Shown here: one piece after another, positions 1-36,858 of the stretch
Position numbering within the stretch: position 1 is the first letter of the stretch
How the letters are laid out: each line of letters opens with the position of its first letter
Source: a virus
DNA length: 36,858 bases
UHGV virus genome: UHGV-1010924
Reading direction: 5' to 3' (one strand)
The notes under the pieces: generated by a model
Seen by the model: the letters and a program-made list of their open reading frames with translations, nothing else
The model's database searches: none
Told to the model about the DNA's origin: nothing
Program-made: the position numbers and the translations under genes

Positions 1-291
1 TCGCAGAAGCTGGAAGAGGTGACGGCCATCGACACGTTCATCCAGGGCGCGCTGATCGTTGCACAGGCTGATCCTACCGTGATGGACAACATCGACATGG
101 ACGAGGCCCAGCGCTTCAAGGGTGAAGCCTTGGGCGTACCTGGCTCGATCATCCGCAGCTCGGCCGACCGGGACAAGATCCGCGCCGACCGCGCCCAGGC
201 CCAGCAGGCAGCACAGGAGCAGGAGCAGCAGCAAATGATGATGCAGCAGGCCGGCGACGCCGCGCTTAAACAACGGGGGGCCGCAGCGTGA
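1..291 (+). CDS. Portal (head-to-tail connector) protein, C-terminal 97 codons; the ORF is open at the window start and is in frame with the portal N-terminus at the window end
   Basis: ORF is open from position 1 in frame 1 and stops with TGA at 289-291. The Gln-rich tail (QAQQAAQEQEQQQMMMQQ) is typical of T7-type portals. It sits immediately upstream of the scaffold gene, as in T7 gp8-gp9. Confidence 0.7.
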   Translation, partial: SQKLEEVTAIDTFIQGALIVAQADPTVMDNIDMDEAQRFKGEALGVPGSIIRSSADRDKIRADRAQAQQAAQEQEQQQMMMQQAGDAALKQRGAAA

Positions 292-533
292 GCCTGACAC
301 CCGAGCAGACCGACGACATGTTCAAGCGCGTGTTCGAGGACCACCACGAAGGCCGCATCGTGCTGGACCTGCTGATCCAGCGCTTTGCAAAGAACGCCTG
401 CACCGTGGGTGGCATCGACGCCATCCTCACCACGTACAAACAAGCCGGGGCCCGTGAAGTCCTGGACCACATCATGAACCGCGTTAACCGCGCCAATGGC
501 GTCCAAGACGACCCTAACGACCGAGAGGAATGA
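288..533 (+). CDS. Hypothetical small protein (81 aa) between portal and scaffold
   Basis: GTG start overlaps the portal stop (GTGA) and its stop overlaps the scaffold start (ATGA). Codon usage matches the neighbouring genes. There is no T7 equivalent at this position. Confidence 0.5.
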   Translation: MSLTPEQTDDMFKRVFEDHHEGRIVLDLLIQRFAKNACTVGGIDAILTTYKQAGAREVLDHIMNRVNRANGVQDDPNDREE

Positions 534-1372
534 CGATGAACATGTTTACCCATGGCCGACTGAACCACTTCATGGCCGAAGCCCCCGAGGGCGGCGACCC
601 ATCGACCGCAGCACCTGCAGCACCTACACCCACCGGCTCCGTGCTGGATAGCGGTGCACAGCCTGACTACTTCCCCGAGAAGTACCAGGTCAAGAAGGAA
701 GACGGCTCGCTCGACCTGGAACAGTCCAGCCGCAAGCTGGCCGAGTCCTACAAGCACTTGGAGACCCGACTGGGTTCCGGTGACATCCCGCCGAAGACTG
801 CCGACGAATACGCCGTGAAGCTGGAAGGCGTCGAGGGCTTCAACTGGGACGAGTTCAAGGCTGACGAGGGCACCCAGTCGTTCCTCAATGGCGCGCACGC
901 CAAGGGCCTGACCAATGCCCAGGTTGAGTACGTGATCGGCGAGTACATGAAGGCAGCTCCCGGCCTGGTCGAGGGCGGGGTGCAGTTGAGTCAGCAGGAT
1001 TGCGCCGCGACGCTCAAGGCCGCATGGGGTGACGAGCAGGCTATGACGCAGAACGTGCGTGCGTCGTACCGCGCTGCTGAGACCTTCGCCAGTGAACCGG
1101 GCAAGCCTGGGAACTTCGCCGCGCTCCAGGCCAAGTATGGCAACGACCCGGACTTCATTGCGTTCACCGCCAACATCGGCCGCGAACTCAAGGAGGACAA
1201 CGCCATCAACGGCGGCGCCCAGGTCAACGAAGCTGACTTCAACATCAAAGCCGCTGAACTGCGCGCCCAGCTCCAGGCTTTGCCCGCGCACGATCCCAAG
1301 CGCCCAGGCGTCCAGGCCCAGCTCGATGCGATGTACGAGCAGAAGTACAGCAAGCCGAAGACCCGCTTCTAA
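530..1372 (+). CDS. Head scaffolding protein (T7 gp9-like)
   Basis: 280 aa. The N-terminus is Pro/Ala-rich and low complexity; the rest is acidic with helical character. It lies between portal and major capsid. RBS GAGAGG at 523-528. Confidence 0.65.
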   Translation: MTMNMFTHGRLNHFMAEAPEGGDPSTAAPAAPTPTGSVLDSGAQPDYFPEKYQVKKEDGSLDLEQSSRKLAESYKHLETRLGSGDIPPKTADEYAVKLEGVEGFNWDEFKADEGTQSFLNGAHAKGLTNAQVEYVIGEYMKAAPGLVEGGVQLSQQDCAATLKAAWGDEQAMTQNVRASYRAAETFASEPGKPGNFAALQAKYGNDPDFIAFTANIGRELKEDNAINGGAQVNEADFNIKAAELRAQLQALPAHDPKRPGVQAQLDAMYEQKYSKPKTRF

Positions 1373-1383
1373 CTCCCCGCGTC

Positions 1384-1403
1384 AAATAGTCGGGAAACCG
1401 ACA
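1384..1403 (+). promoter_or_regulatory. Conserved late-region element, copy 1
   Basis: aaatagtcgggaaaccgaca. It lies 12 nt after the scaffold stop and 170 nt upstream of the capsid start. Confidence 0.6.
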
Positions 1404-1571
1404 CCCCCCACGCACGAACATCGCAGGCATCCCAGCAATGGGCCGGCCTGCGATGGCACGCAGACACCCGGAAAGCCCCGAGGCGCAGCAAAGCCGATGC
1501 ACGCCAGGTAATCCCGGCCCGCGATGCGGACAACCGGCAGGCAATCCCTAATCTGCATTGGAGTGCATCAT

Positions 1572-2480: not shown

Positions 2481-2942
2481 ATGGCAACCGTTCTCGCAAG
2501 TCTCGCGGCAGCCCGAGTGGCTTACCCGCAAACCCTGGTTAAACCGAACCTGCAAGGTGCGGACATCCAGACCTTCATCAGTACTTACACCGTGCCAGTT
2601 GGTGGTGTGGCCATCGGCGACGTGATTTCGTGGGGCTATCTGCCCTTCGGCGCTCGCCTGATGCCAGGCACCGCCATCTTCTGCGCCGCCGGCACCGCGT
2701 CGTCCACCATCAACCTGGGCGATGCCGTGACTCCGGCTCGGTACATGGCTGCATCGTCTGCCGCGTCCGCTGCCAAGCTGCCGGCCGAAGCCCAGTTCAC
2801 CAACGGCGCGCTGTTTGAAGTGAGCGTGACCAAGCCAGGTGACGCAACCGACACCAGTGAACTGCGCTCTGTCGTGGCAGGCGCCGCACTGCTGGCCGGC
2901 CAGGTGCTGACCTTGGTGGCCTTCTACGCCGGCCAGAACTGA
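2481..2942 (+). CDS. Hypothetical virion protein (153 aa, Ala-rich); possible minor capsid or decoration protein
   Basis: RBS AGGAGC at 2467-2472. Located between the capsid gene and the terminator at 2976. Confidence 0.5.
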   Translation: MATVLASLAAARVAYPQTLVKPNLQGADIQTFISTYTVPVGGVAIGDVISWGYLPFGARLMPGTAIFCAAGTASSTINLGDAVTPARYMAASSAASAAKLPAEAQFTNGALFEVSVTKPGDATDTSELRSVVAGAALLAGQVLTLVAFYAGQN

Positions 2943-2975
2943 TTTCACGGGCCGCCATGGACGGCAACAATTTAC

Positions 2976-3001
2976 CGGGGCCGTGTGCCCCGGTCTTTTT
3001 A
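2976..3001 (+). terminator. Rho-independent terminator after the capsid genes (analogous to T7 T-phi)
   Basis: Stem ccggggc/gccccgg (7 bp), loop cgtgt, followed by tcttttta. Confidence 0.75.
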
Positions 3002-3014
3002 TCTGGAGGTTGGG

Positions 3015-6216: not shown

Positions 6217-6735
6217 ATGGCAGTAGGAGCAGTGGGGATGGCCGCTTATGCGGCAATGGCAGCGGCCACCGTGTACTCGGTGTATTCCACCCAGCAATCG
6301 GGCAAGCAAGCTCAGCTCAATGCTAACGCCCAATCCGATCAGGCCCAGGCCGATGCCGATACAGCCGCCAGTGCTGCCGTGGTGCAGGCCGATCGTATCC
6401 GCCGCCTGGCGCGTAACCAGGCCAGCGAAGCCAATGCCGCCCTGGCAGCCTCCGGTGTTGAGACCGGCGCCGGCACCGCGATCAACATCAACGAGCAGAT
6501 CATCGGTAACGCCGAGGAAGACGCGGCGCTGACAATCTTCAACGGCAAGAACCAGCGTGCCCGTGGATACGTCGACGCCAGCAACTACACGCTGGCAGGC
6601 CAACAGGCGCGCGGCAATGCCAATGCCCAGTCCATCGGGACTGTTCTATCTGCTGGCGCTCAAGCCGGTATGGCGTGGAAGGCATCCGCCGCCGGTAAGA
6701 ACGCAACCGTTCCAAGTGTTGGGGGGAATGCCTGA
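6217..6735 (+). CDS. Internal virion protein (gp14-like, 172 aa)
   Basis: Ala/Gln/Asn-rich with a hydrophobic N-terminus. Lies between the GNAT gene and the large internal virion proteins. Stop and start codons overlap the flanking genes. Confidence 0.55.
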   Translation: MAVGAVGMAAYAAMAAATVYSVYSTQQSGKQAQLNANAQSDQAQADADTAASAAVVQADRIRRLARNQASEANAALAASGVETGAGTAININEQIIGNAEEDAALTIFNGKNQRARGYVDASNYTLAGQQARGNANAQSIGTVLSAGAQAGMAWKASAAGKNATVPSVGGNA

Positions 6736-8753
6736 TGGCACAGATTCCGCTGGGCAATTTCGCGCAGGCACGCGCCGTACCAGATGCACCGCAGAACCGC
6801 GTTGTCACCATGGACAACCGTGGACAGGCCCAGGCCGCGCAACAGGTCGCCAGCACCGTGCAGAGCGCGGCGTTGGGCGTGCTGGACAACATCAACAAGG
6901 AAGACCAGGCCCTTGCCAGGGTGAAGGCCAGTAACGCGCTTATCGACCGCGAGTCGCAGATCAAGACCATCGCCACGGACCTTGACGAGAAAATGCGCAC
7001 CGGTCAGTTGCCCTACGAAAAGTCCGAAGAGGCATACAACGCCGCTGTGTCCAAGCTTGACCCGGTGATAACGCCAGGTCTGGACGAGGCGCAACAGGGC
7101 GAGATCGGCAACTCGATCAAGCGCATCCAGCTGGGCGGCCTGGACAGCATCCGTTCCTCGGCAGCCAAGGGGCGTATCCAGTCGGCACAGAGCGACCTGG
7201 TGTCGCGCATGGATATGCTGGGCAAAGATGCCGCCATGCCCGGTGCAAACGTTGACCAGATCAATGCCCGCATGGATGCCGAAGACATTGACGTTGCCGG
7301 CCACCTGGCGTTCGGCGAAGCCTGGACCAGCAAGAAGCAGGAATTCAAGGACAACAACTGGACCACACACGCCACCCAGCGCGTGATCGAGGCGCGGGAA
7401 AGTGTGGGCAGCCTGCAAAAGCTTGAGCATGACCTGACCGCCGAGGACGGTTTCTACGCCCGCAAGCTGGACCCCGAGAAGCGCAATCAACTGCTGAACA
7501 CCGTGAGCGGTCGCATCTTCCAAGTGAAGGAACACCAGCAGCGCCAGGCCGAAATGCGCGAAATGAAGGCCGAGCGCGCGCTAACCCAGATGGATCGCCA
7601 GGCCGCCACCGGGGTTCCGCCAACACCTGCAGATCAGCAGCGGTGGAAATCGTTGGTCTCCGGCACGTCCGTTGCCGGCGAGTTCAACACCCGCATGCAG
7701 GAAATGACCCAGGTGCAGACCCTGCTGAGACAGCCGCCAGCGGTGGCCCAGCAGTTCATCGACCAGCAGCGCCAACAGATGCAGGCGAACGGCGGCAGCG
7801 TGGCCCAGCAAGCCAACCTGAACCGGTTGCAGTCGGCGGTGGACAACAACATCAAGATGATGCGCGAAACCCCGCTGGTGTTTAACGCCATGCGCACTGG
7901 CTCCGATGTTGCACCACTGGACGTGGCGGGCATTGCCACGCCCGAGGGCCAACAGAAGCTTGGCGAGCAGATTGCCGACCGGTTCGACGTGGTCAACGCG
8001 GTGCGCAAGGCATATGGCCCTGAGGTCAACCGCAACCCATGGAAGCCAGAAGAACAGGTCATGCTGTCCTCGCTGATCAAGCAGGCCGACGATGGCACCA
8101 AGCTGCAACTGTTAGGCGCCATCGCAAAATCTTCACCGTCTGGGGCTGACTATGCCGCCGCGATAAAACCAATCGCGGGCGATGACCCGATTGTAACCTT
8201 GGCAGGCATGGCTCAGTTCCGCAAACTCAAGGGCGCAGACGGCACCGACGTACCGCGCACGCTGCTGGCCGGTGCAAAGGTGCTGGCCGACAAATCGGTG
8301 CCGCTGCCCAAGGACAAGTTCTTCCGCGAGGCATTCGACGAACACGCCGGGGCATCGCTGGTTCCTGGCACCCCGCAGCGCGAGCAAGCCTACCTTGCAT
8401 TCAAATCCCTGTACGCCGGCACCGCCGCGTCGAAGGGGTTGAAGTACGACGAGGGTGACGATCTGGACAAGAAGACCGCCCAGGCCGCGTTCGATATGGC
8501 AACCGGTGGTGTTGCTGAGCGGGCCGGCGCCCGGGTGATAAAACCGTATGGGATGGATGACGACACGTTTAACAAGTCCGTGGATATGCAGCTGGAAGGC
8601 ATGGCCAAGAACAGCAAAATCCCAGTGAGCCAGCTGGAAGACATGCCAATGATGCCGGTGCCAGGCAAGGAGGGCATGTACTACCTGCTGAACGCCGGCC
8701 GGGTGCAGCTTGACCCGGACACCCAACAACCCATCACGGTGATCGTCAAATGA
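6735..8753 (+). CDS. Internal virion (ejection/core) protein, gp15-like (672 aa)
   Basis: Large helical, Gln-rich protein at the T7 gp15 position. ATGA overlaps on both sides. Confidence 0.6.
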   Translation: MAQIPLGNFAQARAVPDAPQNRVVTMDNRGQAQAAQQVASTVQSAALGVLDNINKEDQALARVKASNALIDRESQIKTIATDLDEKMRTGQLPYEKSEEAYNAAVSKLDPVITPGLDEAQQGEIGNSIKRIQLGGLDSIRSSAAKGRIQSAQSDLVSRMDMLGKDAAMPGANVDQINARMDAEDIDVAGHLAFGEAWTSKKQEFKDNNWTTHATQRVIEARESVGSLQKLEHDLTAEDGFYARKLDPEKRNQLLNTVSGRIFQVKEHQQRQAEMREMKAERALTQMDRQAATGVPPTPADQQRWKSLVSGTSVAGEFNTRMQEMTQVQTLLRQPPAVAQQFIDQQRQQMQANGGSVAQQANLNRLQSAVDNNIKMMRETPLVFNAMRTGSDVAPLDVAGIATPEGQQKLGEQIADRFDVVNAVRKAYGPEVNRNPWKPEEQVMLSSLIKQADDGTKLQLLGAIAKSSPSGADYAAAIKPIAGDDPIVTLAGMAQFRKLKGADGTDVPRTLLAGAKVLADKSVPLPKDKFFREAFDEHAGASLVPGTPQREQAYLAFKSLYAGTAASKGLKYDEGDDLDKKTAQAAFDMATGGVAERAGARVIKPYGMDDDTFNKSVDMQLEGMAKNSKIPVSQLEDMPMMPVPGKEGMYYLLNAGRVQLDPDTQQPITVIVK

Positions 8754-10657
8754 GCTGGCTAGACGGGATGATCGAGGACAACGAAGCGCTGAGCCAAGAC
8801 CAGCGCCTCGACCGCACCACGGATAAGCTGGCGCCTGGCGTGTTCACGGGCGCACTCAGCACCATCGGGCCTAACCTGCTACGCGGCGCCATTGAGGGCG
8901 GTCGTACGATCCAGTCCACGGCGTTGCAACTGGGCAGCCTGGCCGTTGAATCCGACCTGTCCATCAGCTCATCGTACGCGCCGGATGATGGCCAACTGGC
9001 TGATCAGCAGCAGTTTCGGGAAACCCAGGCCCGCGACATCGGCGAGAAAACCGCCAAGTCGGTCATGAGCCTGCGCCCCGACCCAAGTGAGGTCGGCCTT
9101 GTCGGCCAGATCCTGGGCGAGGCATCCGCCGTATTGCCGCGTACCATTGCCGGCGCCGTGGTTGCCGGTCCTGCCGGTGCGGCCCTGGCTGCTGGTGGAC
9201 CAGCAGGTTTCTCCAGCAAGCAAGTGGGCATGGCCGAGGGCCTGGACGAATCCACCGCCACCAAAAAGGGCTTGATCGACGCCGCGACCACGGGCATCGG
9301 CGTTGCGCTGCCGGCGGCCAGGTTCGTCAAACCGATCCTCGGCGATGCCGCTATTGCTGTCGGTGCCAACGTTGGGCTGGGCATGGCCGGCCGTGGTGCT
9401 ACCGCCGCGCTACTGGAAAGCAATGGCTATCACAGCCAGGCCGCACAGTACAAAGCCTTGGACGGAACAGCGATGGCGACCGATGCGATCATGGGCCTGG
9501 CCTTCTTTGGCCTTGGCCGTGTCAACTTTCGCCGCCCGACCACTCGCCAAGTGGATGCCGCGCTGACTGAACGCACCAACCAGCATGCCGATATCGACAC
9601 CGCCCCGGGTGCACCCATTGATCCAAAGTCGGCCATGGCCCACCAAGACGCGATCCGTACCGTGATCGACCAGCTGCAACGCGGTGAGCCGGTGGTGCTG
9701 CCCGACAGCATCCATAGCGCCCAATTCATTCGCGCCGCCGATGAGCCGCGCGGTATGGCGCCGAGCAAGGACGCCGCCCTTGCCACGGCGCGCCAGGATC
9801 TGGAGCCGAAACTGCGCGTTGAGCTGGAGCAGGAAGCCGCCGGCATCTTGCCAAACGTAAAGGACGTGAAGGCCGAACTGTCTACCGTTGCCCAAAACCT
9901 GGCCGCCCTGGACGACACCTTCAAGGCCCGTGCCAAGGAATTCCAGCAGCAGGGGCAGAGCCGCAAGCAGGCCGAAGCATCCGCGCGCCAGGCAATTGAG
10001 GCTGATCGGCTTGACCTGTCCGACCGTCAAAACTCGTTGAACGAAGCATTGGGCGGTAACCGAAGTGCCGAGCATCCGCGCGCAGACCTGAATGCGCTGG
10101 ATCGCGGCGAGGTGCCGGCCAGGTTCCAGGATCGCTTATCACAACGCGCCGATGCCATCGTGCAGGGTTTCGAGAAAAAGCCGTTGGCTGCCGGTGTCGC
10201 CGAGGCCAACACCAAGCTGACCATGGCGCAGATCGCCCGCCAGGAAATCACCCGCATCCTCGACGACATCGAGCGTGCCGACCCTACGTTGCAGCCGAAA
10301 GCTCTGGACATTCCGGAGCCAAAGGTTGCACCGAAGGCCGATGGCGCGGCGCCCAAGGCTGAATCCCCACCTGGTGGGAAAGCTGGCGCGCAAGATAAGC
10401 CAGCCCCGGCGAACGATGCCGCCAAGCCTGATGGTGCAGCAGCCCAGGCCGATCCGGTGGTGCAGGTTGCCGACGAAATCCTATCGCGCGTCGATGACAT
10501 GCGTATCTCAACGGGCGCCATGGACGCCGACGGCAACCCGATCACAGTATCGGCGCGTGAACTGCTGGCCAATGCTGACGCAGAAATCGTCAAGGCCCAG
10601 CAGGACGCCAAGGGTTTCGCCGCCGCCGCCGCTTGCTTCCTGCAACGCGGGCTCTAA
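8750..10657 (+). CDS. Internal virion (ejection/core) protein (635 aa)
   Basis: Large Ala-rich protein in the core-protein block. Its stop TAA lies inside late element copy 2. Confidence 0.55.
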   Translation: MSWLDGMIEDNEALSQDQRLDRTTDKLAPGVFTGALSTIGPNLLRGAIEGGRTIQSTALQLGSLAVESDLSISSSYAPDDGQLADQQQFRETQARDIGEKTAKSVMSLRPDPSEVGLVGQILGEASAVLPRTIAGAVVAGPAGAALAAGGPAGFSSKQVGMAEGLDESTATKKGLIDAATTGIGVALPAARFVKPILGDAAIAVGANVGLGMAGRGATAALLESNGYHSQAAQYKALDGTAMATDAIMGLAFFGLGRVNFRRPTTRQVDAALTERTNQHADIDTAPGAPIDPKSAMAHQDAIRTVIDQLQRGEPVVLPDSIHSAQFIRAADEPRGMAPSKDAALATARQDLEPKLRVELEQEAAGILPNVKDVKAELSTVAQNLAALDDTFKARAKEFQQQGQSRKQAEASARQAIEADRLDLSDRQNSLNEALGGNRSAEHPRADLNALDRGEVPARFQDRLSQRADAIVQGFEKKPLAAGVAEANTKLTMAQIARQEITRILDDIERADPTLQPKALDIPEPKVAPKADGAAPKAESPPGGKAGAQDKPAPANDAAKPDGAAAQADPVVQVADEILSRVDDMRISTGAMDADGNPITVSARELLANADAEIVKAQQDAKGFAAAAACFLQRGL

Positions 10658-10675
10658 ATAGTCGGGAAACCGTCT
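10656..10675 (+). promoter_or_regulatory. Conserved late-region element, copy 2
   Basis: aaatagtcgggaaaccgtct. It overlaps the stop of the 8750-10657 gene and lies 45 nt upstream of the 10721 gene. Confidence 0.6.
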
Positions 10676-10689
10676 ACCGCTGAACCATA

Positions 10690-10719
10690 GGCTTGCTCCC
10701 ATTCAACCAGGAGCAAGCC
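10690..10719 (+). other. Perfect 10-bp stem-loop sequestering the Shine-Dalgarno sequence of the 10721 gene
   Basis: ggcttgctcc (10690-10699) pairs with ggagcaagcc (10710-10719) across a 10-nt loop. The AGGAG ribosome-binding site lies in the 3' arm. The ATG is at 10721. Confidence 0.6.
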
Positions 10720-27328: not shown

Positions 27329-27427
27329 GACTCACCAAATATACGAATGCGGATTAATAGAATTCTATTGCATGAGCTAATGCATATTCGTATGATTAAT
27401 CATGCAAAACCTCATAGGATTCCAGTC
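27329..27427. promoter_or_regulatory. OR-like immunity region with operator palindromes and divergent promoters
   Basis: Perfect palindrome aatagaattctatt at 27356-27369. Perfect palindrome tgattaatca at 27393-27402. Inverted half-sites atacgaat (27341-27348) and attcgtat (27385-27392). Rightward promoter: -35 TTGCAT at 27368-27373, 17-nt spacer, -10 TATGAT at 27391-27396. Confidence 0.65.
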
Positions 27428-28184: not shown

Positions 28185-28376
28185 ATGCCCAATCTCAATG
28201 AACGCGTCAACACCCCAGGGTTTTCGACCCATGGGATGAGCTTTCACCAGTCTGCAGCTATGCATGCCGCGCAGATGGTTCGCTACCAGTACACCAAAGA
28301 ATCAAAGAACCGGTTCCGCCGTGAGTGCCTTGAGCATTTGAAGGCATCCCTGCTGCACGTAGGGGGTTCGGCATGA
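28185..28376 (+). CDS. Hypothetical protein (63 aa)
   Basis: ATG at 28185 with GGAG 7 nt upstream. Its stop overlaps the start of the replication gene. Confidence 0.45.
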   Translation: MPNLNERVNTPGFSTHGMSFHQSAAMHAAQMVRYQYTKESKNRFRRECLEHLKASLLHVGGSA

Positions 28377-29185
28377 GCAACGTCATTCAACTTAAATCGG
28401 CCGGGGGCTTCACCCGGATGGAAAACACACTGTATGAGGCCCTAATCAGGGCCGAGCTGTCAGGACGTGAGCTTCGCGTGGCACTTGCCGTGCATCGCCT
28501 CACTGCTGGCTACAACAAGGACTCCGTGAAGGTAGCAGCTCTGTATATCGCCAAGATGATGTACGGCGAAGAAGGGGCTGATAGCGAGCGCGCAAACGTG
28601 TCCAGGGCGATCAATTCCTTGATCCGTCAGCGGGTACTTTTCCGTGATGGTGGCAGCCGTGATCCGATCACTTTTCTGCCGTCAAATGAGTGGAAAGTAG
28701 ACCCAAAAACTACTGTGTTGAAATCTACACACTGTGTGAAAAACATACATGCCACTGTGTTGGAAATTACACACATAAAAGAAAGAAATACAAATACTAC
28801 TCCTAACGGAGTAGTCGTCGACGCGGGGCGTCAACCTGAGCAAGAAGACCTGTTGGCAGAAAAGGTCGTTCGCTCGGCACCGGCAGTGGATGCATGCCCG
28901 TATCAGGAGATCGTAAATCTCTACCACATGGCGCTCCCTGAATTACCAGCTGTTGCCCTTTTGACTGCTGGACGCAAAAAGACCCTGCAAGCTCGGTGGC
29001 GCGAAAGTGAGGTTCACCGTGACCTCTCGTTCTGGGCTGACTACTTCGCCTCCGTGAAGGCTTCACGCTTCCTGACCGGCCGTGCCGAGGGCCGCAATGG
29101 CGACTCGCCGTTCCGCGCCTCGTTCGACTGGCTGATTGCACCTCGCAACTTCGTCAAGGTTGTGGAGGGCAATTACAATGCGTGA
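28373..29185 (+). CDS. Putative replication initiation protein (lambda O-like position)
   Basis: 270 aa. Immediately upstream of, and overlapping, the DnaB-type helicase. The N-terminus is winged-helix-like. The protein contains a lower-GC patch at about 28680-28800. Confidence 0.55.
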   Translation: MSNVIQLKSAGGFTRMENTLYEALIRAELSGRELRVALAVHRLTAGYNKDSVKVAALYIAKMMYGEEGADSERANVSRAINSLIRQRVLFRDGGSRDPITFLPSNEWKVDPKTTVLKSTHCVKNIHATVLEITHIKERNTNTTPNGVVVDAGRQPEQEDLLAEKVVRSAPAVDACPYQEIVNLYHMALPELPAVALLTAGRKKTLQARWRESEVHRDLSFWADYFASVKASRFLTGRAEGRNGDSPFRASFDWLIAPRNFVKVVEGNYNA

Positions 29186-31027: not shown

Positions 31028-31149
31028 GCACAAGGAAGCTCCATCCCTCCGACAAAGCCAATGCCCCATGGAGCCGGGAGTGTTTTTACTCCATGCCGAG
31101 CAGCGTGACTCTGAAAAAGAAAAAGGCGAATAAGAGGGCTCGGCCATGA
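31024..31149 (+). CDS. Small ORF (41 aa), ATGA-coupled to both neighbours
   Basis: Its ATG overlaps the upstream stop and its TGA overlaps the ninB ATG. The protein is basic. Not in the supplied track. Confidence 0.35.
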   Translation: MSTRKLHPSDKANAPWSRECFYSMPSSVTLKKKKANKRARP

Positions 31150-31616
31150 CCGACAAGATCAGCGTCAACAGCGCCACCAAGCTCTCAGAGGCCATCAACG
31201 CCCTGACAGCCATGTACCGGGAAAAGAAGTTCGTCGTCGTCTCCCTGCGCCCAGGCAAGGACCGCACCCTGGATCAGAACGCCCTGTGGTTCGCCCTGTA
31301 CCAGCGAATCGCCCAGATGACCCAGCTCGGTGACGTGGAGGACGCCCGCCGGTACTGCAAGCTGCACTTCGGCGTGCCGATCATGCGCGCCGCCAGTGAA
31401 GACTTCCGTCACGGCTACAACATGGCGCTGCTCAACCTGCCATATGAGACCAAGCTCAGCTGGATGGGACCGTGCGCACTGTTCGGCCCGGACGGCTTCC
31501 CGGTGACTCGCCTGTTCAATCGCGCCCAGGGCATCGCCTACACGGACCAGATCGTGGCCGAGTTCAGCGCCAAGGGTGTGGTGTTTACTGATCTGCTGGG
31601 CGAGGTGGCGGCGTGA
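31146..31616 (+). CDS. ninB: NinB/Orf-family recombination mediator
   Basis: RTLDQNALWFALYQRIA matches the lambda NinB motif RSLDQNRKLWACLGDVS. 156 aa. Confidence 0.85.
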   Translation: MTDKISVNSATKLSEAINALTAMYREKKFVVVSLRPGKDRTLDQNALWFALYQRIAQMTQLGDVEDARRYCKLHFGVPIMRAASEDFRHGYNMALLNLPYETKLSWMGPCALFGPDGFPVTRLFNRAQGIAYTDQIVAEFSAKGVVFTDLLGEVAA

Positions 31617-31798
31617 GCAAGACATCCCAGCGCAAGCGCCAGGCGTACGAAGAGGGTCACCGTGATGCTAAGAGCCGCAACGGGATCAGGTATTCGCGCC
31701 ATCCATTCATGGATGCGTACAGAGCCGGATATCGGGATGGTTTGGATGCTTCCAAGCCGAGAACCTTGCTTCAATGGTTCCGCGAGGTATTTGCATGA
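31613..31798 (+). CDS. Hypothetical basic small protein (61 aa)
   Basis: GTG start overlapping the ninB stop; its stop overlaps the ninG start. Confidence 0.4.
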   Translation: MSKTSQRKRQAYEEGHRDAKSRNGIRYSRHPFMDAYRAGYRDGLDASKPRTLLQWFREVFA

Positions 31799-32376
31799 GC
31801 CTCCAAGCCAAACAACCCCGCCCAAAGAAGTGCAAGAACCCAGCATGCGGCGAGAAGTTCGTCGCTCAACGCCTGGGCCAAGCCGTATGCAGCCCCAAGT
31901 GTGGCCTCGCCATCAAGGACGTAAACCAAGACAAAGCCCGCAAGGCCATCGCCGAGGTAGGCCGCAAGGAGCTGAGAGCGGCCAAGGAGCGCGTAAAGCC
32001 GAAGGGGCAGTACATGCGTGAGGCTCAGGCTGCGTTCAACGCTTGGATACGCGCCAGAGACGCCGCCCAGCCATGCATCAGTTGTGGTCGTCACCATGAT
32101 GGCCAATACCACGCCGGGCACTACCGCACAGTCGGCTCAAGCCCAGAGCTTCGCTTCGAGCCGCTCAACGCGCACAAGCAGTGTGCACCCTGCAACAACC
32201 ACAAGTCCGGCGACATCGTGAACTACCGCATAAGCCTGGTAGTGCGCATAGGGCAGGACAAGGTGGAATGGCTTGAAGGGCCGCATGAGCCGCAGCGCTA
32301 CACCATCGACGATCTCAAGGCCATCAAGGCCGAGTACCGCGAAAAGCTGAAACAACTCTTGGGGGAAGCAGCATGA
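31795..32376 (+). CDS. ninG: NinG/Rap-family protein
   Basis: Close pattern match to lambda NinG: KKCKNPACGEKF...CSPKCG, PCISCGRH...AGHYRT, LRFEPLNAHKQCAPCNNHKSGD, KAIKAEYREKLKQL. Confidence 0.9.
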   Translation: MSLQAKQPRPKKCKNPACGEKFVAQRLGQAVCSPKCGLAIKDVNQDKARKAIAEVGRKELRAAKERVKPKGQYMREAQAAFNAWIRARDAAQPCISCGRHHDGQYHAGHYRTVGSSPELRFEPLNAHKQCAPCNNHKSGDIVNYRISLVVRIGQDKVEWLEGPHEPQRYTIDDLKAIKAEYREKLKQLLGEAA

Positions 32377-32590: not shown

Positions 32591-32851
32591 ATGCTCGCCC
32601 ATGCGGAGGTGCGCGTTGACTGGTTCCAGGTCATCAACGGGATTCTGCGTGCTGGGTATTCGATCCAGTCGGCGGCGGAGGTGATCAAGGTTCCGCGTTC
32701 AACGTTGATCGGATGGAAGCAGGGTGCAGAGCCTCGGTATACGGAGGGTGAGCGCCTTGTGTCGTTCTGGGTCCAGGCTACGGGCCGGGACCGTAAATCA
32801 TTGCCCATGGTCGCGGTAGGGGACTGGTGGGCTTATCACTCGAAAGCATGA
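32591..32851 (+). CDS. Small HTH protein (86 aa); candidate late-gene regulator at the lambda Q position
   Basis: ATG at 32591 with RBS GGAGG. HTH-like YSIQSAAEVIKVPRSTLIGW. It is the last regulatory-looking gene before the late element, terminator and lysis cassette. Confidence 0.45.
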   Translation: MLAHAEVRVDWFQVINGILRAGYSIQSAAEVIKVPRSTLIGWKQGAEPRYTEGERLVSFWVQATGRDRKSLPMVAVGDWWAYHSKA

Positions 32852-32861
32852 GGGAATACCG

Positions 32862-33185
32862 ATGAAACACGAAGACGAACAACGCGTAATTGACCTGGCC
32901 GATGCTGCAGGTCGGGCTATGAGCAATGGCTTGCTTGGCCTGTCCGCCAAGCTGGCTGCCGAGGCTGAGAATTTGTTGCTGCAAGGCAGTGGCCAATCGT
33001 TCCTGGCCTATGGCGAACGTCGCGGGTTGAATATGGATCTGTTGCTCCCGCCCGGCCGCACCGTAAATGGCGAGCACCGACGCTATGAAAGCGAGAAAAC
33101 CCAAGAACTATTCGATTGCTGGCTTGCTGCTCGCGGGCAGAAGGTGTGGACTCCGCCAACTGATGGCGCAACGCCAGTCAAATAG
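32862..33185 (+). CDS. Hypothetical protein (107 aa)
   Basis: RBS GAGGG. Its stop TAG lies inside late element copy 4. Confidence 0.45.
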   Translation: MKHEDEQRVIDLADAAGRAMSNGLLGLSAKLAAEAENLLLQGSGQSFLAYGERRGLNMDLLLPPGRTVNGEHRRYESEKTQELFDCWLAARGQKVWTPPTDGATPVK

Positions 33186-33199
33186 TCGGGATTCCGACA
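33180..33199 (+). promoter_or_regulatory. Conserved late-region element, copy 4 (variant loop), directly upstream of a strong terminator and the lysis genes
   Basis: aaatagtcgggattccgaca. It overlaps the stop of the 32862-33185 gene. The terminator begins 31 nt downstream. Confidence 0.6.
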
Positions 33200-33230
33200 C
33201 CTGACAAGAACGACTCTTAGCGTCATCGCA

Positions 33231-33260
33231 GCCCAGCCACCTCGCGCTGGGCTTTTTTTT
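33231..33260 (+). terminator. Strong rho-independent terminator between late element copy 4 and the holin gene (like tR')
   Basis: Stem gcccagc/gctgggc, loop cacctcgc, followed by a run of eight T. Confidence 0.8.
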
Positions 33261-33277
33261 GACTCTGGAGGCCAACC

Positions 33278-33556
33278 ATGACGGCACCAGACAGGAGTAG
33301 CAGCATGGCCAACCCAGCACCCGAAAGCATCGTAGAGGTCGTTGGCGCGTCAGTCGCCAGCAAGGGGATGCTTACGGGCGGCGCCGTGGGGTTGGTTGGG
33401 TTCTTCTCGCAAGTGAACTGGATAGGCGTGTCGGGCGTTGTGATCGCGGTACTGGGCCTGCTGACAAACCTGTACTTTCAGGTGCGCAAGGATCGACGCG
33501 AGTCCATCGAAAGCGCCGCGCGCATTGAGTCGTTGAAAGAGCGTGCACGTTCATGA
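33278..33556 (+). CDS. Pinholin (phage 21 S-like class II holin)
   Basis: TMD1 MLTGGAVGLVGFF is weakly hydrophobic. TMD2 IGVSGVVIAVLGLLTNLYFQVRKDRR matches the phage 21 S pattern LGFLTYLTNLYFKIREDRR. Two Met codons lie near the N-terminus. Confidence 0.75.
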   Translation: MTAPDRSSSMANPAPESIVEVVGASVASKGMLTGGAVGLVGFFSQVNWIGVSGVVIAVLGLLTNLYFQVRKDRRESIESAARIESLKERARS

Positions 33557-34068
33557 GCCCCCAACTGCGTCAGCGCATCGCCGTAGGAATGCTGAGCATC
33601 AGCGCCGCCGGCTTCGCTACCTGGCAGGCCAACGAAGGCTTGACCACCACCGCAGTAATCCCCACACAGGGCGACGTGCCCACCATCGGCCACGGCTCGA
33701 CCCGTTACGAAGACGGCTCGCCAGTCCGCATGGGCGACACCATCACGCCCCAGCGCGCCGAGATCCTGGCCCGCAACCTGAACAGCCAAGCCGAGAAGCA
33801 GTTCGCCGCGTCACTGCCGGGTGTCACGCTGCATCAAACTGAGTTCGATGTGTACATGGACTTCGTGGGCCAGTACGGCATTGGCACCTGGCTCAAGGGC
33901 TCACCGCGCCGTGACCTGCTGGCCGGGAACTACGCCCAGGCTTGCAACGACCTGCTCAAGTACAAGTACGCCGCTGGGTTCGACTGCTCCACGCCGGGTA
34001 ACAAGCGGTGTGCTGGAGTCTGGGCTCGGCAGTTGAAGCGCCATGCCAAGTGCATGAGCGTGCAGTAA
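33553..34068 (+). CDS. SAR endolysin, T4-lysozyme-like (GH24)
   Basis: The N-terminal SAR domain IAVGMLSISAAGFATW is followed by EG...D...T in ANEGLTTTAVIPTQGDVPTIGHGST, as in phage 21 R. ATGA overlap with the holin. Confidence 0.85.
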   Translation: MSPQLRQRIAVGMLSISAAGFATWQANEGLTTTAVIPTQGDVPTIGHGSTRYEDGSPVRMGDTITPQRAEILARNLNSQAEKQFAASLPGVTLHQTEFDVYMDFVGQYGIGTWLKGSPRRDLLAGNYAQACNDLLKYKYAAGFDCSTPGNKRCAGVWARQLKRHAKCMSVQ

Positions 34069-34092
34069 TCCCCAACCGCAGAGGTAATACCC

Positions 34093-34446
34093 GTGAACGA
34101 TCAATCGATTGAGCAAGAAATCCAGGCCAAGGGCCTGACCGCGCCGCGCGTCACTCCGGCGGACCTGCAAGCCAATATCAAGGGGTGTGTCTACTTCACC
34201 GCCCAAGATGGTGTGCAGGGCAGTGATCCACATATGGCGCAATACACCGACAAGTCGCTGGATCTGCTGACCTTCTGTGTCCTGGTGCTGCGCAACGGTT
34301 TCACCGTCACCGGCGAGAGCGCATGCGCCAGTCCTGAGAACTTCGACGCGGAGTTAGGCCGCAAGATCGCCCGCCAGAACGCCGAGCAGAAGGTATGGCC
34401 GCTGATGGGCTACGCGCTCAAACAGCAACTGTACGCCGAGTCCTGA
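34093..34446 (+). CDS. Gp49-like lysis-module protein (117 aa; tentative Phage_gp49_66 family)
   Basis: GTG start after AGAGG. The GFTVTGESACASPENFDAELGRKIA pattern is recalled from lysis-region proteins of the N4 gp49 and Sf6 gp66 type. Confidence 0.4.
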   Translation: MNDQSIEQEIQAKGLTAPRVTPADLQANIKGCVYFTAQDGVQGSDPHMAQYTDKSLDLLTFCVLVLRNGFTVTGESACASPENFDAELGRKIARQNAEQKVWPLMGYALKQQLYAES

Positions 34447-34457
34447 CCGTGGGCGCC

Positions 34458-34901
34458 ATGGCTCGCTATCTCGTTGCAGGGCTTGCCATGGCGCTTGTTC
34501 TGGCGTTGTGGCGTCTCGATCATGTCAGCACCAGCCTTGCCGCCGCAACGCAGCGTGTGAGCGAGCTGGAGACCGCCAACGCATCACGCCGCGCCACCCA
34601 GAAGCTGCTGACCCAGCTCGACACCGACAACACGAAGGTACTCACCGATGCTCAAGCCCAGAACAAAGCCCTGCTTGCTCGCCTTGGCACTGGCGCTCAG
34701 CGGCTGTCAGTCCCAGCCAAGTGCCCCGTCGTGCGAACCAGCCCAGGCCCCGGCCGCGTGGATGATGCAGAAGCGCGCGCCGAACTTGACCCAGCGGCTG
34801 GTCAACGAATTGTCGGCATCGCCAACGACGGAGACGAAGCAATCATCGCCTTGAATGGATTGATCGATTACGTCAACGCCAGCTGCCTCCCTCGCAAATA
34901 G
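34458..34901 (+). CDS. Rz: Rz-like i-spanin
   Basis: An N-terminal TMD LVAGLAMALVLALW is followed by a coiled-coil periplasmic domain. An embedded lipoprotein ORF is present. An alternative GTG start lies at 34449. Confidence 0.7.
   Translation: MARYLVAGLAMALVLALWRLDHVSTSLAAATQRVSELETANASRRATQKLLTQLDTDNTKVLTDAQAQNKALLARLGTGAQRLSVPAKCPVVRTSPGPGRVDDAEARAELDPAAGQRIVGIANDGDEAIIALNGLIDYVNASCLPRK
34648..34854 (+). CDS. Rz1: Rz1-like o-spanin lipoprotein, embedded in Rz in the +1 frame
   Basis: Signal plus lipobox LLALALALSGC. The mature part is Pro-rich. It lies wholly inside Rz in a different frame. Confidence 0.65.
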   Translation: MLKPRTKPCLLALALALSGCQSQPSAPSCEPAQAPAAWMMQKRAPNLTQRLVNELSASPTTETKQSSP

Positions 34902-34915
34902 TCGGGAACCCGACA
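34896..34915 (+). promoter_or_regulatory. Conserved late-region element, copy 5 (variant)
   Basis: aaatagtcgggaacccgaca. It overlaps the Rz stop and lies 55 nt upstream of the 34971 gene. Confidence 0.55.
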
Positions 34916-34970
34916 GCCCAACCCATTGATTCTGGCCCTCGTTGATCAACAACCAACTGAGGCCAGACCA

Positions 34971-35348
34971 ATGCCAGCACCAGAACTCACCACGCAGACC
35001 CCGGGCGATACCACCGCCAACACTGCGCCAGTCACTGAAACCCCAGCACCTCCAGCACTGTACGTCGCCAAGCATAACGGTGGCGGGCGCTGGAAGATCT
35101 GGTCGACCGCTACTGACGACTGGTTCAGCGATTACGTTGTTGCCGGTGAAGGCGCAAAGGAACAGGCCGAGGCAGAAGCTGAGCGCCTGATTGCCGGCGG
35201 TGATCCGTTCGTCAAGCCTGCCGAGCCGCCGCCCGAGGTAAAGGCCGCTCCAAAGCCCAAGGCTGTGACTGCCACGCCTACCACGATCAAGCAGCCCGTT
35301 CTGACCAGCGAAGGCTGGCTCTGCCCTGAACCACCGGTCAAGGAGTAA
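34971..35348 (+). CDS. Hypothetical Pro/Ala/Thr-rich protein (125 aa)
   Basis: ATG at 34971, downstream of late element copy 5. Lies in the block before the portal (the T7 gp6.5-7.7 region). Confidence 0.45.
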   Translation: MPAPELTTQTPGDTTANTAPVTETPAPPALYVAKHNGGGRWKIWSTATDDWFSDYVVAGEGAKEQAEAEAERLIAGGDPFVKPAEPPPEVKAAPKPKAVTATPTTIKQPVLTSEGWLCPEPPVKE

Positions 35349-35353
35349 CGATC

Positions 35354-35557
35354 ATGGGCAGCAAGCCAAAGGCACCAAAGACCGTTGCCGCACCTGATCC
35401 GCAGGTTGAAGCCCAGAAGGCCGCAGACCTGGCAGCCCAGAAGGCCAACGAAGAGACCGCCACCCGCAAGAAGCGCAAGGCCGAGAGCAGCCTGCTCTCC
35501 ACTGGTGGCGCTGCTGGGTCCGTACTTGATCAGGGCAAAAGGACACTCGGCGCATGA
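35354..35557 (+). CDS. Small basic/Ala-rich protein (67 aa), possibly a T7 gp6.7/7.3-like minor virion protein
   Basis: Its stop overlaps the portal ATG (ATGA). Confidence 0.4.
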   Translation: MGSKPKAPKTVAAPDPQVEAQKAADLAAQKANEETATRKKRKAESSLLSTGGAAGSVLDQGKRTLGA

Positions 35558-36858
35558 ACGCAGACCAGATCGCCAAAACGCTGAGCACCTTGAAGTCACT
35601 CCGCTCACCGCATGAGACGGTCTGGCGCGATTGCTTCGATCACAGCTACCCGATCCGGGGCAGTGGCTTTTGCACTGAGCAGATCTCCGCCATCGAGGCG
35701 CAGATGCGCAAGGCAAGGATGATCGATGGCACCACCACGGACGCGGCGCGGATCTTGTCGTCCGGGATCATGTCCGGCCTGACCCCGGCGAACTCGCTGT
35801 GGTTCGGCATGGACGTGGGCCAGGAAAGCGAGGACGAGCGCCGCTGGCTGGATGACTCAGCCGACATCCTGTGGCAGAACATCCACGCCTCCAACTTCGA
35901 TGCGGCGGCCTTTGAGGGCCTGATCGACGTTGTATGTGCTGGCTGGTTTGCCCTGTACATCGATCAGGACATGGAGAAGGGCGGCTTCACGTTCGATCTG
36001 TGGCCTATCGCGAGCGTGTACTGCTCGGCGTCCAAGGCAGGCGGCAAGATCGACACCGTGTACCGCGAGTACAAGCTGACGGCTGAACAGGCTGTCAACG
36101 AGTTCGGCGAAGAGAACCTGAGCGAAGGCACGCGCAAGCTGGCCAAGGAAAAGCCGCAGGAAATGGTTAGCTTCGTCCACGCCATCTACCCACGCACTAC
36201 GCACATGGTCGGCGCCAAGCTGGCCAAAAACATGCCGGTGGCATCGTGCAAGGTGGAAGTCGAGGCCAAGCGCCTGGTGAGTGAGTCGGGCTATCACGAA
36301 ATGCCTGTCGTTGTGCCGCGCTGGATGATGATCCCTGACAGCGTGTACGCCGTGGGCCCGGTGTTCGATGCCTTGCCCGACTCGCGCACCCTGAACGAAT
36401 TGTGCCGGATGGACCTGGCAGCCGGTGACCTGGCCATCGCTGGCATGTGGATTGCCGAGGATGATGGCGTGTTGAACCCGCGAACCGTCAAGGTTGGGCC
36501 GCGCAAGATCATCGTGGCCAACAGCGTTGAGAGCATGAAGCCATTGCAGTCCGGCTCCAACTTCCAGTACGCCGAGACCAAGATCCAGCGCCTGCAGGGT
36601 TCTATCCGCAAGATCCTGATGGCCGACCAGCTCCAGGCCCAGGATGGCCCAGCGATGACCGCGACCGAGGTGCATGTGCGTGTGAACCTGATCCGCCAAC
36701 TGCTGGGCCCGGTGTACGGCCGGCTCCAGACTGAGTACCTGCAACCGATGATTGAGCGGTGCTTCGGCATTGCCTACCGCGCCGGGGTTCTGGGCACTGC
36801 GCCTGAGTCGTTGGCTGGTCGCAACTTCACTGTGCGTTACCTGTCGCCGCTGGCCCGC
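35554..36858 (+). CDS. Portal (head-to-tail connector) protein, N-terminal 435 codons; the ORF is open at the window end
   Basis: ATG at 35554 after AAAAGGA. It runs to the window end in frame 1, the same frame as the portal C-terminus at 1-291. Together they give about 532 aa (T7 gp8 is 536 aa). Confidence 0.8.
   Translation, partial: MNADQIAKTLSTLKSLRSPHETVWRDCFDHSYPIRGSGFCTEQISAIEAQMRKARMIDGTTTDAARILSSGIMSGLTPANSLWFGMDVGQESEDERRWLDDSADILWQNIHASNFDAAAFEGLIDVVCAGWFALYIDQDMEKGGFTFDLWPIASVYCSASKAGGKIDTVYREYKLTAEQAVNEFGEENLSEGTRKLAKEKPQEMVSFVHAIYPRTTHMVGAKLAKNMPVASCKVEVEAKRLVSESGYHEMPVVVPRWMMIPDSVYAVGPVFDALPDSRTLNELCRMDLAAGDLAIAGMWIAEDDGVLNPRTVKVGPRKIIVANSVESMKPLQSGSNFQYAETKIQRLQGSIRKILMADQLQAQDGPAMTATEVHVRVNLIRQLLGPVYGRLQTEYLQPMIERCFGIAYRAGVLGTAPESLAGRNFTVRYLSPLAR

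Follow-up and report, generated by a model that had tools for sequence, protein, structure and literature searches.

A complete circular genome of a mosaic temperate podovirus, with dispersed box elements as candidate late promoters

We analysed the virus genome UHGV-1010924, a stretch of 36,858 bp (hereafter the window; GC content about 60%), and describe its gene content, its relatives and a repeated 20-nucleotide (nt) box that may mark its late promoters. Genes were assigned by PHROG and Pfam profile scans, which placed nearly every larger gene (Table 1). We conclude with high confidence that the window is the complete circular genome of a temperate podovirus in its excised form, a polymerase-less mosaic of four modules, with a fluorescens-group Pseudomonas as inferred host and late control probably exerted through box promoters.

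Results

The genes fall into four modules. The first is a virion and packaging block of the epsilon15/BPP-1/YeP4 type, comprising a T7-family portal, adaptor and nozzle proteins resembling gp11 and gp12, a GNAT protein, four internal or ejection proteins, a T7-type TerS/TerL pair and a tail fibre with an esterase domain. A second, lambda-like module provides immunity and replication functions (cI with flanking operator clusters, cro, an O gene with iterons, DnaB, NinB and NinG). The third is a cassette of holin, lysozyme with a signal-arrest-release (SAR)-like N-terminus and Rz/Rz1, and the fourth a P4-type integrase and an AlpA-family protein with an attachment core (attP) equal to the 3' end of tRNA-Leu(CAA). 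A first-pass annotation, made from the sequence alone, had described a temperate mosaic phage, and virion, lambda-like, lysis and integration modules were all found: CI/Cro, the O-like initiator with DnaB and NinB/NinG by profile scans (NinB by PHROG only), and the predicted holin, SAR-like lysozyme and Rz/Rz1 by profile scans, hydrophobic segments and the Rz1 lipobox.

The map is circular and the window spans exactly one unit of it, broken at an arbitrary point inside the portal gene. The frame at the 3' end (35554–36858) continues unbroken into positions 1–291 to give a single open reading frame (ORF) of 531 amino acids (aa), the two parts sharing a frame because 36,858 is divisible by 3. 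Over its full length, the joined protein matches PF12236 (Head-tail_con, the portal family of T7 gp8) with 399 bits, and the 534-aa portal of the Yersinia prophage YeP4 aligns without gaps across the junction, at residues 435/436. The end-to-start junction is spanned at 100% identity by at least seven loci, which come from different ENA and JGI metagenome samples and different assemblers, and its exact 40-mer is present in five IMG/VR contigs. The MEGAHIT contig k141_40627 (36,999 bp) has its first base at window position 4898 and its last at 5038, an end overlap of 141 nt that equals the assembler k. Further contigs of 36,999, 36,985 (127 over the unit; k=127) and 36,913 bp (55 over the unit) also reduce to a 36,858-bp unit, and each unit-length contig was opened at a different point. 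With the in-frame portal, the junction-spanning contigs and the k-length overlaps, the first-pass claims of a portal gene split over the window ends and of one unit of a circular or circularly permuted genome are both borne out. Neither a terminal repeat nor a large internal repeat was found in the window, and the physical ends of the virion DNA (direct terminal repeats, headful or cos) are unreadable from assemblies, a point that counts against the overall account.

A circle and a tandem repeat are indistinguishable by sequence alone, and one contig carrying exact proteins measures 63.6 kb, as might be expected if the window were no free phage genome but an integrated prophage, a single repeat of a tandem array or two phages joined by misassembly. 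We consider this extremely unlikely. An exact look-up of the integrase and other proteins returned several hundred public contigs, mostly of 20–50 kb and none above 200 kb, the end overlaps equal the assembler k, breakpoints vary among assemblies, and the attP core has phage DNA on either side. Additionally, three loci match the window at 100% identity over 17–21 kb, and different samples and assemblers agree at 100% over every module boundary examined; a chimera is therefore ruled out.

The identical genome (100% over 12–21 kb; loci L003–L008 and L018–L039) is recurrent across several hundred JGI, ENA and Logan assemblies, where its contigs are often the largest or among the largest in the sample (for example, NODE_1, 36,913 bp) and lack host flanks. 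Such recurrence might point to an environmental phage that is very common, to the prophage of a strain that has been widely sequenced or to contamination, and would be of practical interest if it reflects a contaminant or the prophage of a widely used strain.

Related prophages supply the counterparts of the integration site. The integrase combines an Arm-DNA-bind_3 N-terminus with a tyrosine recombinase core (Pfam), and the attP core sits between its gene and that of the AlpA-family protein, a putative excision factor, upstream of int. In Pseudomonas rossensis (integrase 82% identical), a full tRNA-Leu(CAA) leads into DNA homologous to the int-proximal arm of the window, which makes this junction attL. 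In the loci L024 (GCA_012985905.1) and L020, an identical AlpA gene and P arm extend as far as the core, beyond which lies bacterial DNA that includes bphO and bphP, which makes these junctions attR. Because the core of the window is flanked by phage DNA on both sides, the window carries attP and is the phage form, in agreement with the first-pass reading of a P4-type integrase and AlpA around an intact attP. Lysogens would form by integration at tRNA-Leu(CAA), and the S24-type CI would be cleaved on SOS induction.

Named sources of the relatives of CI, the integrase and a helix-turn-helix (HTH) protein discussed below include P. rhodesiae, P. fluorescens and P. chlororaphis, and partial DNA matches of the genome are to Pseudomonas phages. 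These clues point to a Pseudomonas of the fluorescens group as the probable host. Three points weigh against this account of host and lysogeny: the host is inferred and not observed, the att junctions were read in related prophages having the att/int/AlpA module in common with the window, and an integrase scan of a species-level genome set revealed no integrated copy of this exact genome (best 82%, P. rossensis).

The genome encodes no single-subunit RNA polymerase. The first-pass annotation had made this claim and proposed tblastn as a check; a search with T7 gp1 gave a best E of 1.7, and gp1 and gp5 gave nothing better than E = 1.3. All ORFs above 400 aa were assigned to other families, and the only one near RNA polymerase size, of 846 aa, belongs to a virion family and has no polymerase domain (Pfam). 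Because the circle is closed, no polymerase gene lies outside the window. As neither an RNA nor a DNA polymerase is encoded, host enzymes therefore transcribe and replicate the genome, and late expression depends on host polymerase plus phage elements, as had been proposed.

It does not follow that this is a T7-like genome that lacks its polymerase, as the first-pass annotation had it. Had a phage belonging to, or derived from, the T7 group (Autographiviridae) turned temperate and lost its RNA polymerase, one might expect a portal in the T7 gp8 Pfam family, a TerL with a T7-type nuclease domain and a virion gene order resembling T7 genes 8–16 (portal, scaffold, capsid, tube A, tube B, internal proteins). 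All of these are present: TerL shares 36% identity with gp19 over 159 aa, and PF12236 and the TerL family PF22530 score above their cut-offs. The nozzle scores below its Pfam cut-off. However, we regard such a derivation as very unlikely, given that only TerL and the DnaB helicase domain are detectable by BLAST against T7 and that the capsid belongs to a different family (PF19821). Autographiviridae encode a single-subunit RNA polymerase that transcribes the phage genes, a family A DNA polymerase and a primase-helicase, with all genes on one strand. In the window, a T7-type DNA polymerase, primase-helicase, single-stranded DNA-binding protein and endonuclease are absent, and genes lie on both strands, about 10 kb being coded on the minus strand. 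Real temperate Pseudomonas T7-likes keep the polymerase beside int and a MarR regulator, as LUZ100 does (PMC10134795); the window, in contrast to T7, LUZ100 and the P. putida KT2440 prophage, has no single-subunit RNA polymerase, T7-type replication genes or MarR regulator. The nearest relatives examined (epsilon15, YeP4–6 and YA3) also have no annotated RNA polymerase, and its absence is normal for the lineage. What the window shares with T7 and temperate T7-likes is the portal Pfam family, the TerL nuclease domain and the overall virion gene order, with a functional parallel in several dispersed, near-identical late promoter-like elements and a terminator after the capsid block.

Protein comparisons place the genome instead among temperate podoviruses of the epsilon15/BPP-1/YeP4 type, whose structural block, from the portal through three large ejection proteins, is present with detectable homology. 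By megablast against 50,697 GenBank phage records, the structural half has no DNA-level match and the early half only short patches. The portal is closest to those of the inducible prophages YeP4–6 (60%), and next, far more distantly, to those of Acinetobacter, Alcaligenes, Pelagibacter and Vibrio podoviruses. For the 846-aa protein, the closest matches are YA3, MPK9, Shamal and HB2107-3I (61%), followed by YeP4 and then by phiV10/SPN1S, which are relatives of epsilon15.

YeP4, YeP5 and YeP6 (MK733262–4) are inducible podoviral prophages of Yersinia enterocolitica O:9 (PMC6548840). Gene-by-gene tblastn found the whole virion and packaging block in YeP4 in the same order, with 29–69% aa identity, and two small genes before the portal are alike in position with no sequence match detected. 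The late box, the 86-aa HTH protein, a tyrosine integrase and the temperate lifestyle are also shared. By contrast, YeP4 carries its own DNA polymerase, primase and helicase where the window has lambda-like O, DnaB, NinB and NinG, and its lysis genes follow the tail fibre whereas those of the window precede the portal. Its host is an enterobacterium of about 50% GC, and it shows no DNA-level similarity to the window.

YA3, MPK9, Shamal and HB2107-3I are temperate podoviruses with Pseudomonas hosts and epsilon15-type ejection proteins, as in the window. They share CI/Cro, NinB, NinG (68% aa identity), holin, lysozyme, Rz, and integrase plus excisionase; their counterparts of the 846-aa and 635-aa proteins are 61% and 40% identical. 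However, their portal is only 29% identical, their annotated terminase precedes the portal, an arrangement shared with epsilon15, and has no BLAST match to that of the window, and the capsid, scaffold and TerL of the window are BLAST-undetectable there. Their integrase likewise has no BLAST match to that of the window, and they have an annotated Q antiterminator, no homologue of the 86-aa HTH protein and no late box.

Epsilon15 (Uetakevirus; BPP-1-type head genes are related) is also temperate, and each of its genes from gp3 to gp17 has a counterpart at the same place in the order of the window. A small gene precedes the portal, a second small gene and the protease/scaffold come next, and then follow the capsid, accessory head genes, gp11-like and gp12-like genes, GNAT, internal proteins, the three large ejection proteins and the tailspike. 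Its detectable proteins are 24–34% identical, and it differs in terminase type and position, a BLAST-undetectable capsid, regulation and O-antigen conversion genes. The likeness to lambda lies in an S24 cI divergent from cro, operator clusters flanking the cI block, a gene placed where lambda has rex, iterons within O, NinB and NinG in a nin region, and a regulator gene followed by promoter, terminator and a lysis cassette with embedded Rz1. Unlike lambda, the window has DnaB instead of P, P4-type int and AlpA instead of lambda int and xis, podovirus virion genes and no N or Q homologue.

The feature that sets the late region apart is the 20-nt box AAATAGTCGGGAAACCGACA, of which a repeat search of the window found five copies with at most two mismatches, against none expected by chance. 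All five lie on the late strand, at gene boundaries and only ahead of late genes. The box was found in more than 117 IMG/VR stretches, and in 135 unique contexts only two flanking positions are constrained, +31 with an A in 84% and +35 with a T in 79% (numbering starts at the A of ATAG). An A and a T at these positions define the -10 hexamer of sigma-70 promoters (A-11/T-7). The centre of the box would thus lie near -31, with leaders of 21 to 144 nt that carry ribosome-binding sites. By a strand call based on GC content at third codon positions (GC3), 84 of 102 box instances are co-directional with the downstream coding strand and 18 opposed; orientation by longest ORF (56 versus 47) is uninformative in GC-rich DNA.

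YeP4 carries a counterpart, TTAGTCGGGAAACCGAA, at syntenic sites after the HTH gene, before the capsid gene and before the tail fibre (intervals 17930–18030, 21290–21515 and 34920–35029, the last syntenic with box 5 of the window). All three copies keep the downstream A and T, and the one before the capsid gene stands directly behind a terminator.

The core of the box can be folded as a 5-bp stem with a GAAA loop, and all copies lie on the transcribed strand at gene boundaries, one just before a terminator. The five boxes could thus be RNA elements (GNRA-type hairpins in processing, stability or N/boxB-like antitermination) and not promoters. We think this quite unlikely, as 13 of 21 variant copies change the inverted repeat on one side only and none is compensated, a pattern that favours a site acting as DNA over an RNA hairpin. 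The loops also vary (GAAA, GATT, GAAC), a second conserved element lies at a fixed distance as A-11/T-7 of a -10 hexamer would, and the YeP4 box right after a terminator suits re-initiation rather than loading of a factor on an upstream transcript. With no compensatory change seen, the RNA-hairpin reading was dropped.

We therefore favour a reading of the boxes as late promoters, in which the late genes would be read from five dispersed sites, at each of which AAATAGTCGGGAAACCGACA, near -31, would stand in for the -35 element in combination with a weak -10 (gAnnaT). T4 middle promoters offer a precedent, in that a MotA box centred at -30 replaces the -35 element while the sigma-70 -10 is kept. 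The geometry proposed here is alike, with a phage-specific box near -31 and a sigma-70-like -10 (A-11 and T-7 conserved), but the box sequence is another, no MotA/AsiA homologue was detected in the window and the candidate activator has a predicted XRE fold. A sigma-70 scan found no consensus sigma-70 promoter in the late region, and sigma-54, extracytoplasmic function (ECF)-type and classical sigma-70 -35 readings of the box, judged by eye, misfit the conserved positions. The box string was not found, in this sense, in the literature searched. Against the promoter reading stand the weakness of the -10-like hexamers and the fact that most box instances were retrieved with an exact pattern, so that the logo is biased in the core but not in the flanks.

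A candidate regulator is encoded directly upstream of the first box, at the position of lambda Q. This 86-aa protein is modelled as an XRE/Cro-type HTH (predicted local distance difference test score 87.5), and its nearest solved folds by Foldseek, at a weak template modelling score of about 0.5, are restriction-modification controller proteins, SinR and HipB. Its homologues among the GenBank phage records are those of YeP4–6 alone (45%), and they are numerous in Pseudomonas prophages. The gene directly precedes the first box in the window, in YeP4, in a P. saponiphila prophage (L167) and in a further locus, L045, the last two contexts having been fetched via the protein and not via the box. 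In L045 the box begins at the stop codon of the HTH gene and virion genes come next, and in L167 the order is RusA, small ORF, HTH gene, box, terminator and holin.

These contexts suggest that the 86-aa protein may be the late activator of the box promoters: encoded at the end of the early-right operon, it would switch them on. Several points weigh against this role. Binding of the protein to the box is putative, PHROGs names the family of the protein 'repressor', and the strong terminator that lies within about 40 nt of the promoter in the window and in L167 is unexplained by simple activation.

An ORF of 107 aa lies between the regulator gene and the first box. It has no PHROG, Pfam or phage tblastn match, and was dropped as a late regulator after it proved to be replaced by other ORFs in relatives. 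In YeP4, the interval 17190–17360 has a post-primase terminator and, behind it, a cluster of AGACAACCT-type repeats immediately ahead of the HTH regulator gene; this cluster may be an origin or a regulatory array.

The terminator behind box 1 ends 16 nt before the holin start codon, so the lysis genes are reached only by transcription through it. It is identical in a mosaic relative, L027, and the arrangement is equivalent in L167; it would either throttle lysis-gene expression or need an antitermination step. A start site inside its left arm, by which late transcripts might escape termination, was rejected, the inferred start being about 6 nt upstream of the hairpin.

Q-like control, in which the box would be a loading site that makes host polymerase terminator-resistant, as lambda Q does at pR', with the terminator as the equivalent of tR', is suggested by several of these features. 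Box, short leader, terminator and lysis genes follow one another in the window and in the independent prophage L167, whose terminator sequence and holin family are unlike those of the window, and a candidate factor gene stands at the Q position, after the nin genes. We nevertheless hold it to be unlikely. No N or Q family match was found among the scanned ORFs from cro to the holin gene, and the XRE fold of the candidate is unlike known Q structures by Foldseek. No terminator closely follows the remaining four boxes, the one behind box 1 is missing from L045 and YeP4, and in the window the terminator begins so soon after the inferred start that little room is left for a loading pause. The 'Q-like layout' of the first-pass annotation thus stands as an arrangement, a promoter-like box and then a terminator before the holin gene, and fails as a homology, there being no Q homologue and an XRE fold in the protein at the Q position. 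Activation of box promoters by the 86-aa protein remains the reading we prefer.

The remaining features touch these subjects less directly. In the immunity region, the 16-nt motif ATACGWWTNNNNATWA has four copies in the genome, solely at the two sides of the cI block, although the pattern was written after the sites had been seen. The OL-like pair lies just past the gene of the 166-aa protein, beside a good leftward promoter, and the layout mirrors lambda OR/OL. From its place at the position of lambda rexAB, the apparently exported 166-aa protein is a candidate lysogen-expressed exclusion or conversion gene product. Three iteron-like repeats (ACTGTGTTGAAA...; 28712–28774, spaced 19–23 bp) lie inside the O-like gene next to an AT-rich stretch and are likely to be the replication origin, and one small ORF lies between NinB/Orf and NinG/Rap (block 31146–32376, plus strand).

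Seven close relatives are 96–99.9% identical in shared parts and differ by swaps of whole modules, such as RecT/YqaJ for the AAA_24 protein and lambda P plus DUF1376 for O plus DnaB. Genes of Q-position ORFs and Rz variants also differ among them, and one of the exchanged segments has its boundary inside the 107-aa ORF, 21 nt ahead of the stop codon.

The C5 methyltransferase gene is almost fully overlapped on the same strand by an ORF of 269 aa (within 20786–21599), with GC3 of 0.69 versus 0.56, and some public gene calls choose the 269-aa ORF over the methyltransferase frame. At the DNA level, the methyltransferase gene shares about 82% identity with Salmonella phage genes, unusually close for a cross-genus match.

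In the lysis cassette, the holin has two hydrophobic segments and two in-frame starts (33278 and 33305), nine codons apart, for a product of 92 or 83 aa. Public calls use the second, and the pair is a possible holin/antiholin motif. The gp49-like protein is 62% identical to an epsilon15 hypothetical protein, far above any structural protein; its gene is located elsewhere in L045 and absent from L027 and L030.

Among the virion genes, the 153-aa protein after the capsid has no family match in PHROG or Pfam scans and, from its position, may have a cement or decoration role; position likewise suggests that the 111-aa protein is the small terminase. The tail adaptor matches PDB 8ck1_E ('Connector Protein') at E = 3.6e-4, and the nozzle matches PF25675 weakly, with 18 bits under a cut-off of 27. 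Among solved structures, a podovirus portal and nozzle (8ck0, 8ck1) come nearest, together with the Legionella phage structures 9efk and 9eg4 (PMC12407071). Identity of the 846-aa protein is 61% to YA3, 53% to YeP4, 44% to phiV10/SPN1S and 30% to epsilon15 gp17, and that of TerL is 69% to YeP4. A hairpin with a 13-bp stem (13690–13719) lies in the 5' part of terL, about 100 nt past its start, and is a possible packaging-recognition or regulatory element. The N-terminal 220 aa of the tail fibre match tail fibres of YeP4, epsilon15 and YA3; the fibre thus unites a conserved part for virion attachment with the esterase domain, and its gene has a GC content of 0.52–0.55 against about 0.61, which suggests a recently swapped receptor-modifying (deacetylase-type) host-range cassette. 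ARAGORN found no tRNA genes in the window, and no Rfam families were detected.

Table 1. Coordinates of features in the 36,858-bp window, with the evidence for each
Feature	Position	Strand	Evidence and remarks
Portal, C-terminal 96 codons plus stop	1–291	+	ORF join; PF12236; YeP4 alignment
Bbp19-like head protein, 81 aa	288–533	+	phrog_5977; PF25181 (Phage_Bbp19) precomputed; 41% identical to YeP4 counterpart
Scaffold/protease-like protein, 278 aa	536–1372	+	phrog_3742, phrog_458; 42% identical to YeP4 'endoprotease'
Late box 3, before capsid gene	1384–1403	+	-10-like GAACAT 1416–1421; inferred start near 1428
Major capsid protein, 287 aa	1572–2435	+	PF19821, 232 bits; phrog_3437; 39% identical to YeP4
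153-aa protein after capsid gene	2481–2942	+	Place of epsilon15 cement/decoration genes (gp8–gp10)
Intrinsic terminator after capsid block	2974–3003	+	Terminator scan
Tail adaptor (T7 gp11/epsilon15 gp11 analogue), 195 aa	3015–3602	+	phrog_394; YeP4 52%, epsilon15 28%
Tail nozzle (gp12 analogue), 720 aa	3602–5764	+	phrog_376, 662 bits; PDB 8ck1_A 'Tail Nozzle', E = 6e-77
GNAT acetyltransferase, 147 aa	5772–6215	+	Place of epsilon15 gp13; PF00583 precomputed in identical contigs
Internal virion protein, 165 aa	6238–6735	+	phrog_418; 31% identical to epsilon15 gp14
Two ejection/internal proteins, 672 and 635 aa (epsilon15 gp15/gp16 analogues)	6735–10657	+	phrog_992, phrog_1145; tblastn
Late box 4, before 846-aa and terminase genes	10656–10675	+	-10-like TAGGCT 10688–10693
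Virion/ejection protein, 846 aa (epsilon15 gp17 analogue)	10721–13261	+	phrog_684, 904 bits, full length
Putative small terminase, 111 aa	13261–13596	+	phrog_9277; 45% identical to YeP4 gene directly before TerL
Large terminase TerL, T7 type, 540 aa	13586–15208	+	phrog_38; PF22530 (T7 terminase RNaseH-like domain)
Late box 5, in terL 3' end, before tail fibre gene	15126–15145	+	-10-like GACAAT 15158–15163
Tail fibre/spike with SGNH (GDSL) esterase domain, 737 aa	15235–17448	+	PF13472
P4-type tyrosine integrase, 431 aa	17478–18773	-	PF13356, PF22022, PF00589, all above cut-offs
attP core GTCTCCCTCGGGGCACCA, 18 nt	18902–18919	-	3' end of tRNA-Leu(CAA); att comparisons with related prophages
AlpA-family DNA-binding protein, 72 aa	19059–19277	-	PF05930, 21.5 bits (cut-off 21, marginal); phrog_66
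Early-left operon	19267–26069	-	PHROG/Pfam; includes C5 methyltransferase, AAA_24/Sak4-like protein, small ORFs
C5 DNA methyltransferase, 267 aa	20796–21599	-	PF00145
AAA_24/Sak4-like protein	22493–23359	-	Profile scans
pL-like promoter	26069–26041	-	Promoter scan
OL-like pair of 16-nt operator motifs	26044–26084	.	Motif search
166-aa protein, N-terminal hydrophobic segment, 3' of cI	26145–26645	-	Position of lambda rex; low-GC region
CI-type repressor	26672–27328	-	HTH_3 and Peptidase_S24
OR-like pair of 16-nt operator motifs, between cI and cro	27341–27393	.	Motif search
Cro-like HTH protein, 67 aa	27428–27631	+	Profile scans
O-like replication initiator	28373–29185	+	PF04492; phrog_5810
DnaB-type replicative helicase, 461 aa	29178–30563	+	PF03796, 293 bits
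NinB/Orf	31146–31616	+	phrog_7283, 255 bits; Pfam NinB under cut-off
NinG/Rap	31795–32376	+	PF05766, 221 bits
XRE-fold HTH protein, 86 aa, Q position; candidate late regulator	32591–32851	+	Predicted structure; gene context
ORF of 107 aa, variable among relatives	32862–33185	+	ORF call
Late box 1, before holin	33180–33199	+	-10-like GACTCT 33212–33217; inferred start near 33224
Intrinsic terminator, 8-bp stem and run of eight T	33230–33261	+	Hairpin 33230–33253; end 16 nt before holin start codon
Lysis cassette	33278–34901	+	Profile scans
Holin	33278 or 33305 to 33556	+	PF16082, 37.9 bits, passes; PF04971 (P21 holin S), 25.5 bits, cut-off 26
Lysozyme with SAR-like N-terminus	33553–34068	+	PF00959; putative SAR in weakly hydrophobic Gly/Ala/Ser-rich segment, residues 8–24
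gp49-like gene (N4 gp49/Sf6 gp66 family)	34093–34446	+	PF13876; between endolysin and Rz
Rz	34395–34901	+	Profile scans
Rz1, embedded in Rz	34648–34854	+	Lipobox LSGC
Late box 2, before 125-aa, 67-aa and portal genes	34896–34915	+	-10-like GATTCT 34928–34933
125-aa and 67-aa genes before portal	34971–35557	+	Position, as in YeP4 and L045
Portal, N-terminal 435 codons, continuing at position 1	35554–36858	+	ORF join; PF12236; YeP4 alignment

Discussion

Because YA3 has the same general design, we conclude that the genome is of an ordinary, already known kind of phage, in which the pair of box and regulator is possibly new and the sole feature deserving follow-up. With this genome, a new species- or genus-level member joins the temperate podoviruses of fluorescens-group Pseudomonas. 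The genome is also a clean case of module exchange, as a YeP4-type virion block that accompanies its own DNA polymerase and primase in Yersinia is found here on a lambda-like early region. Additionally, it illustrates that a T7-family portal and a T7-like order of virion genes are insufficient to make a genome a polymerase-less T7-like.

We tentatively propose, at somewhat less than even confidence, that the boxes and the 86-aa XRE-fold protein at the Q position form an undescribed late-transcription system, in which the protein activates dispersed box promoters for host RNA polymerase. Such a system may be common to many Pseudomonas phages and prophages and to YeP4–6, and read-through control may act at the first terminator. 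If true, a podovirus with no polymerase of its own would have a T7-like pattern of multiple dedicated late promoters that is served by host RNA polymerase. Box and candidate regulator together make a compact pair that is conserved across hosts and open to direct testing. This pair could explain late timing in widespread polymerase-less podoviruses, and could supply orthogonal promoter and regulator parts for Pseudomonas.

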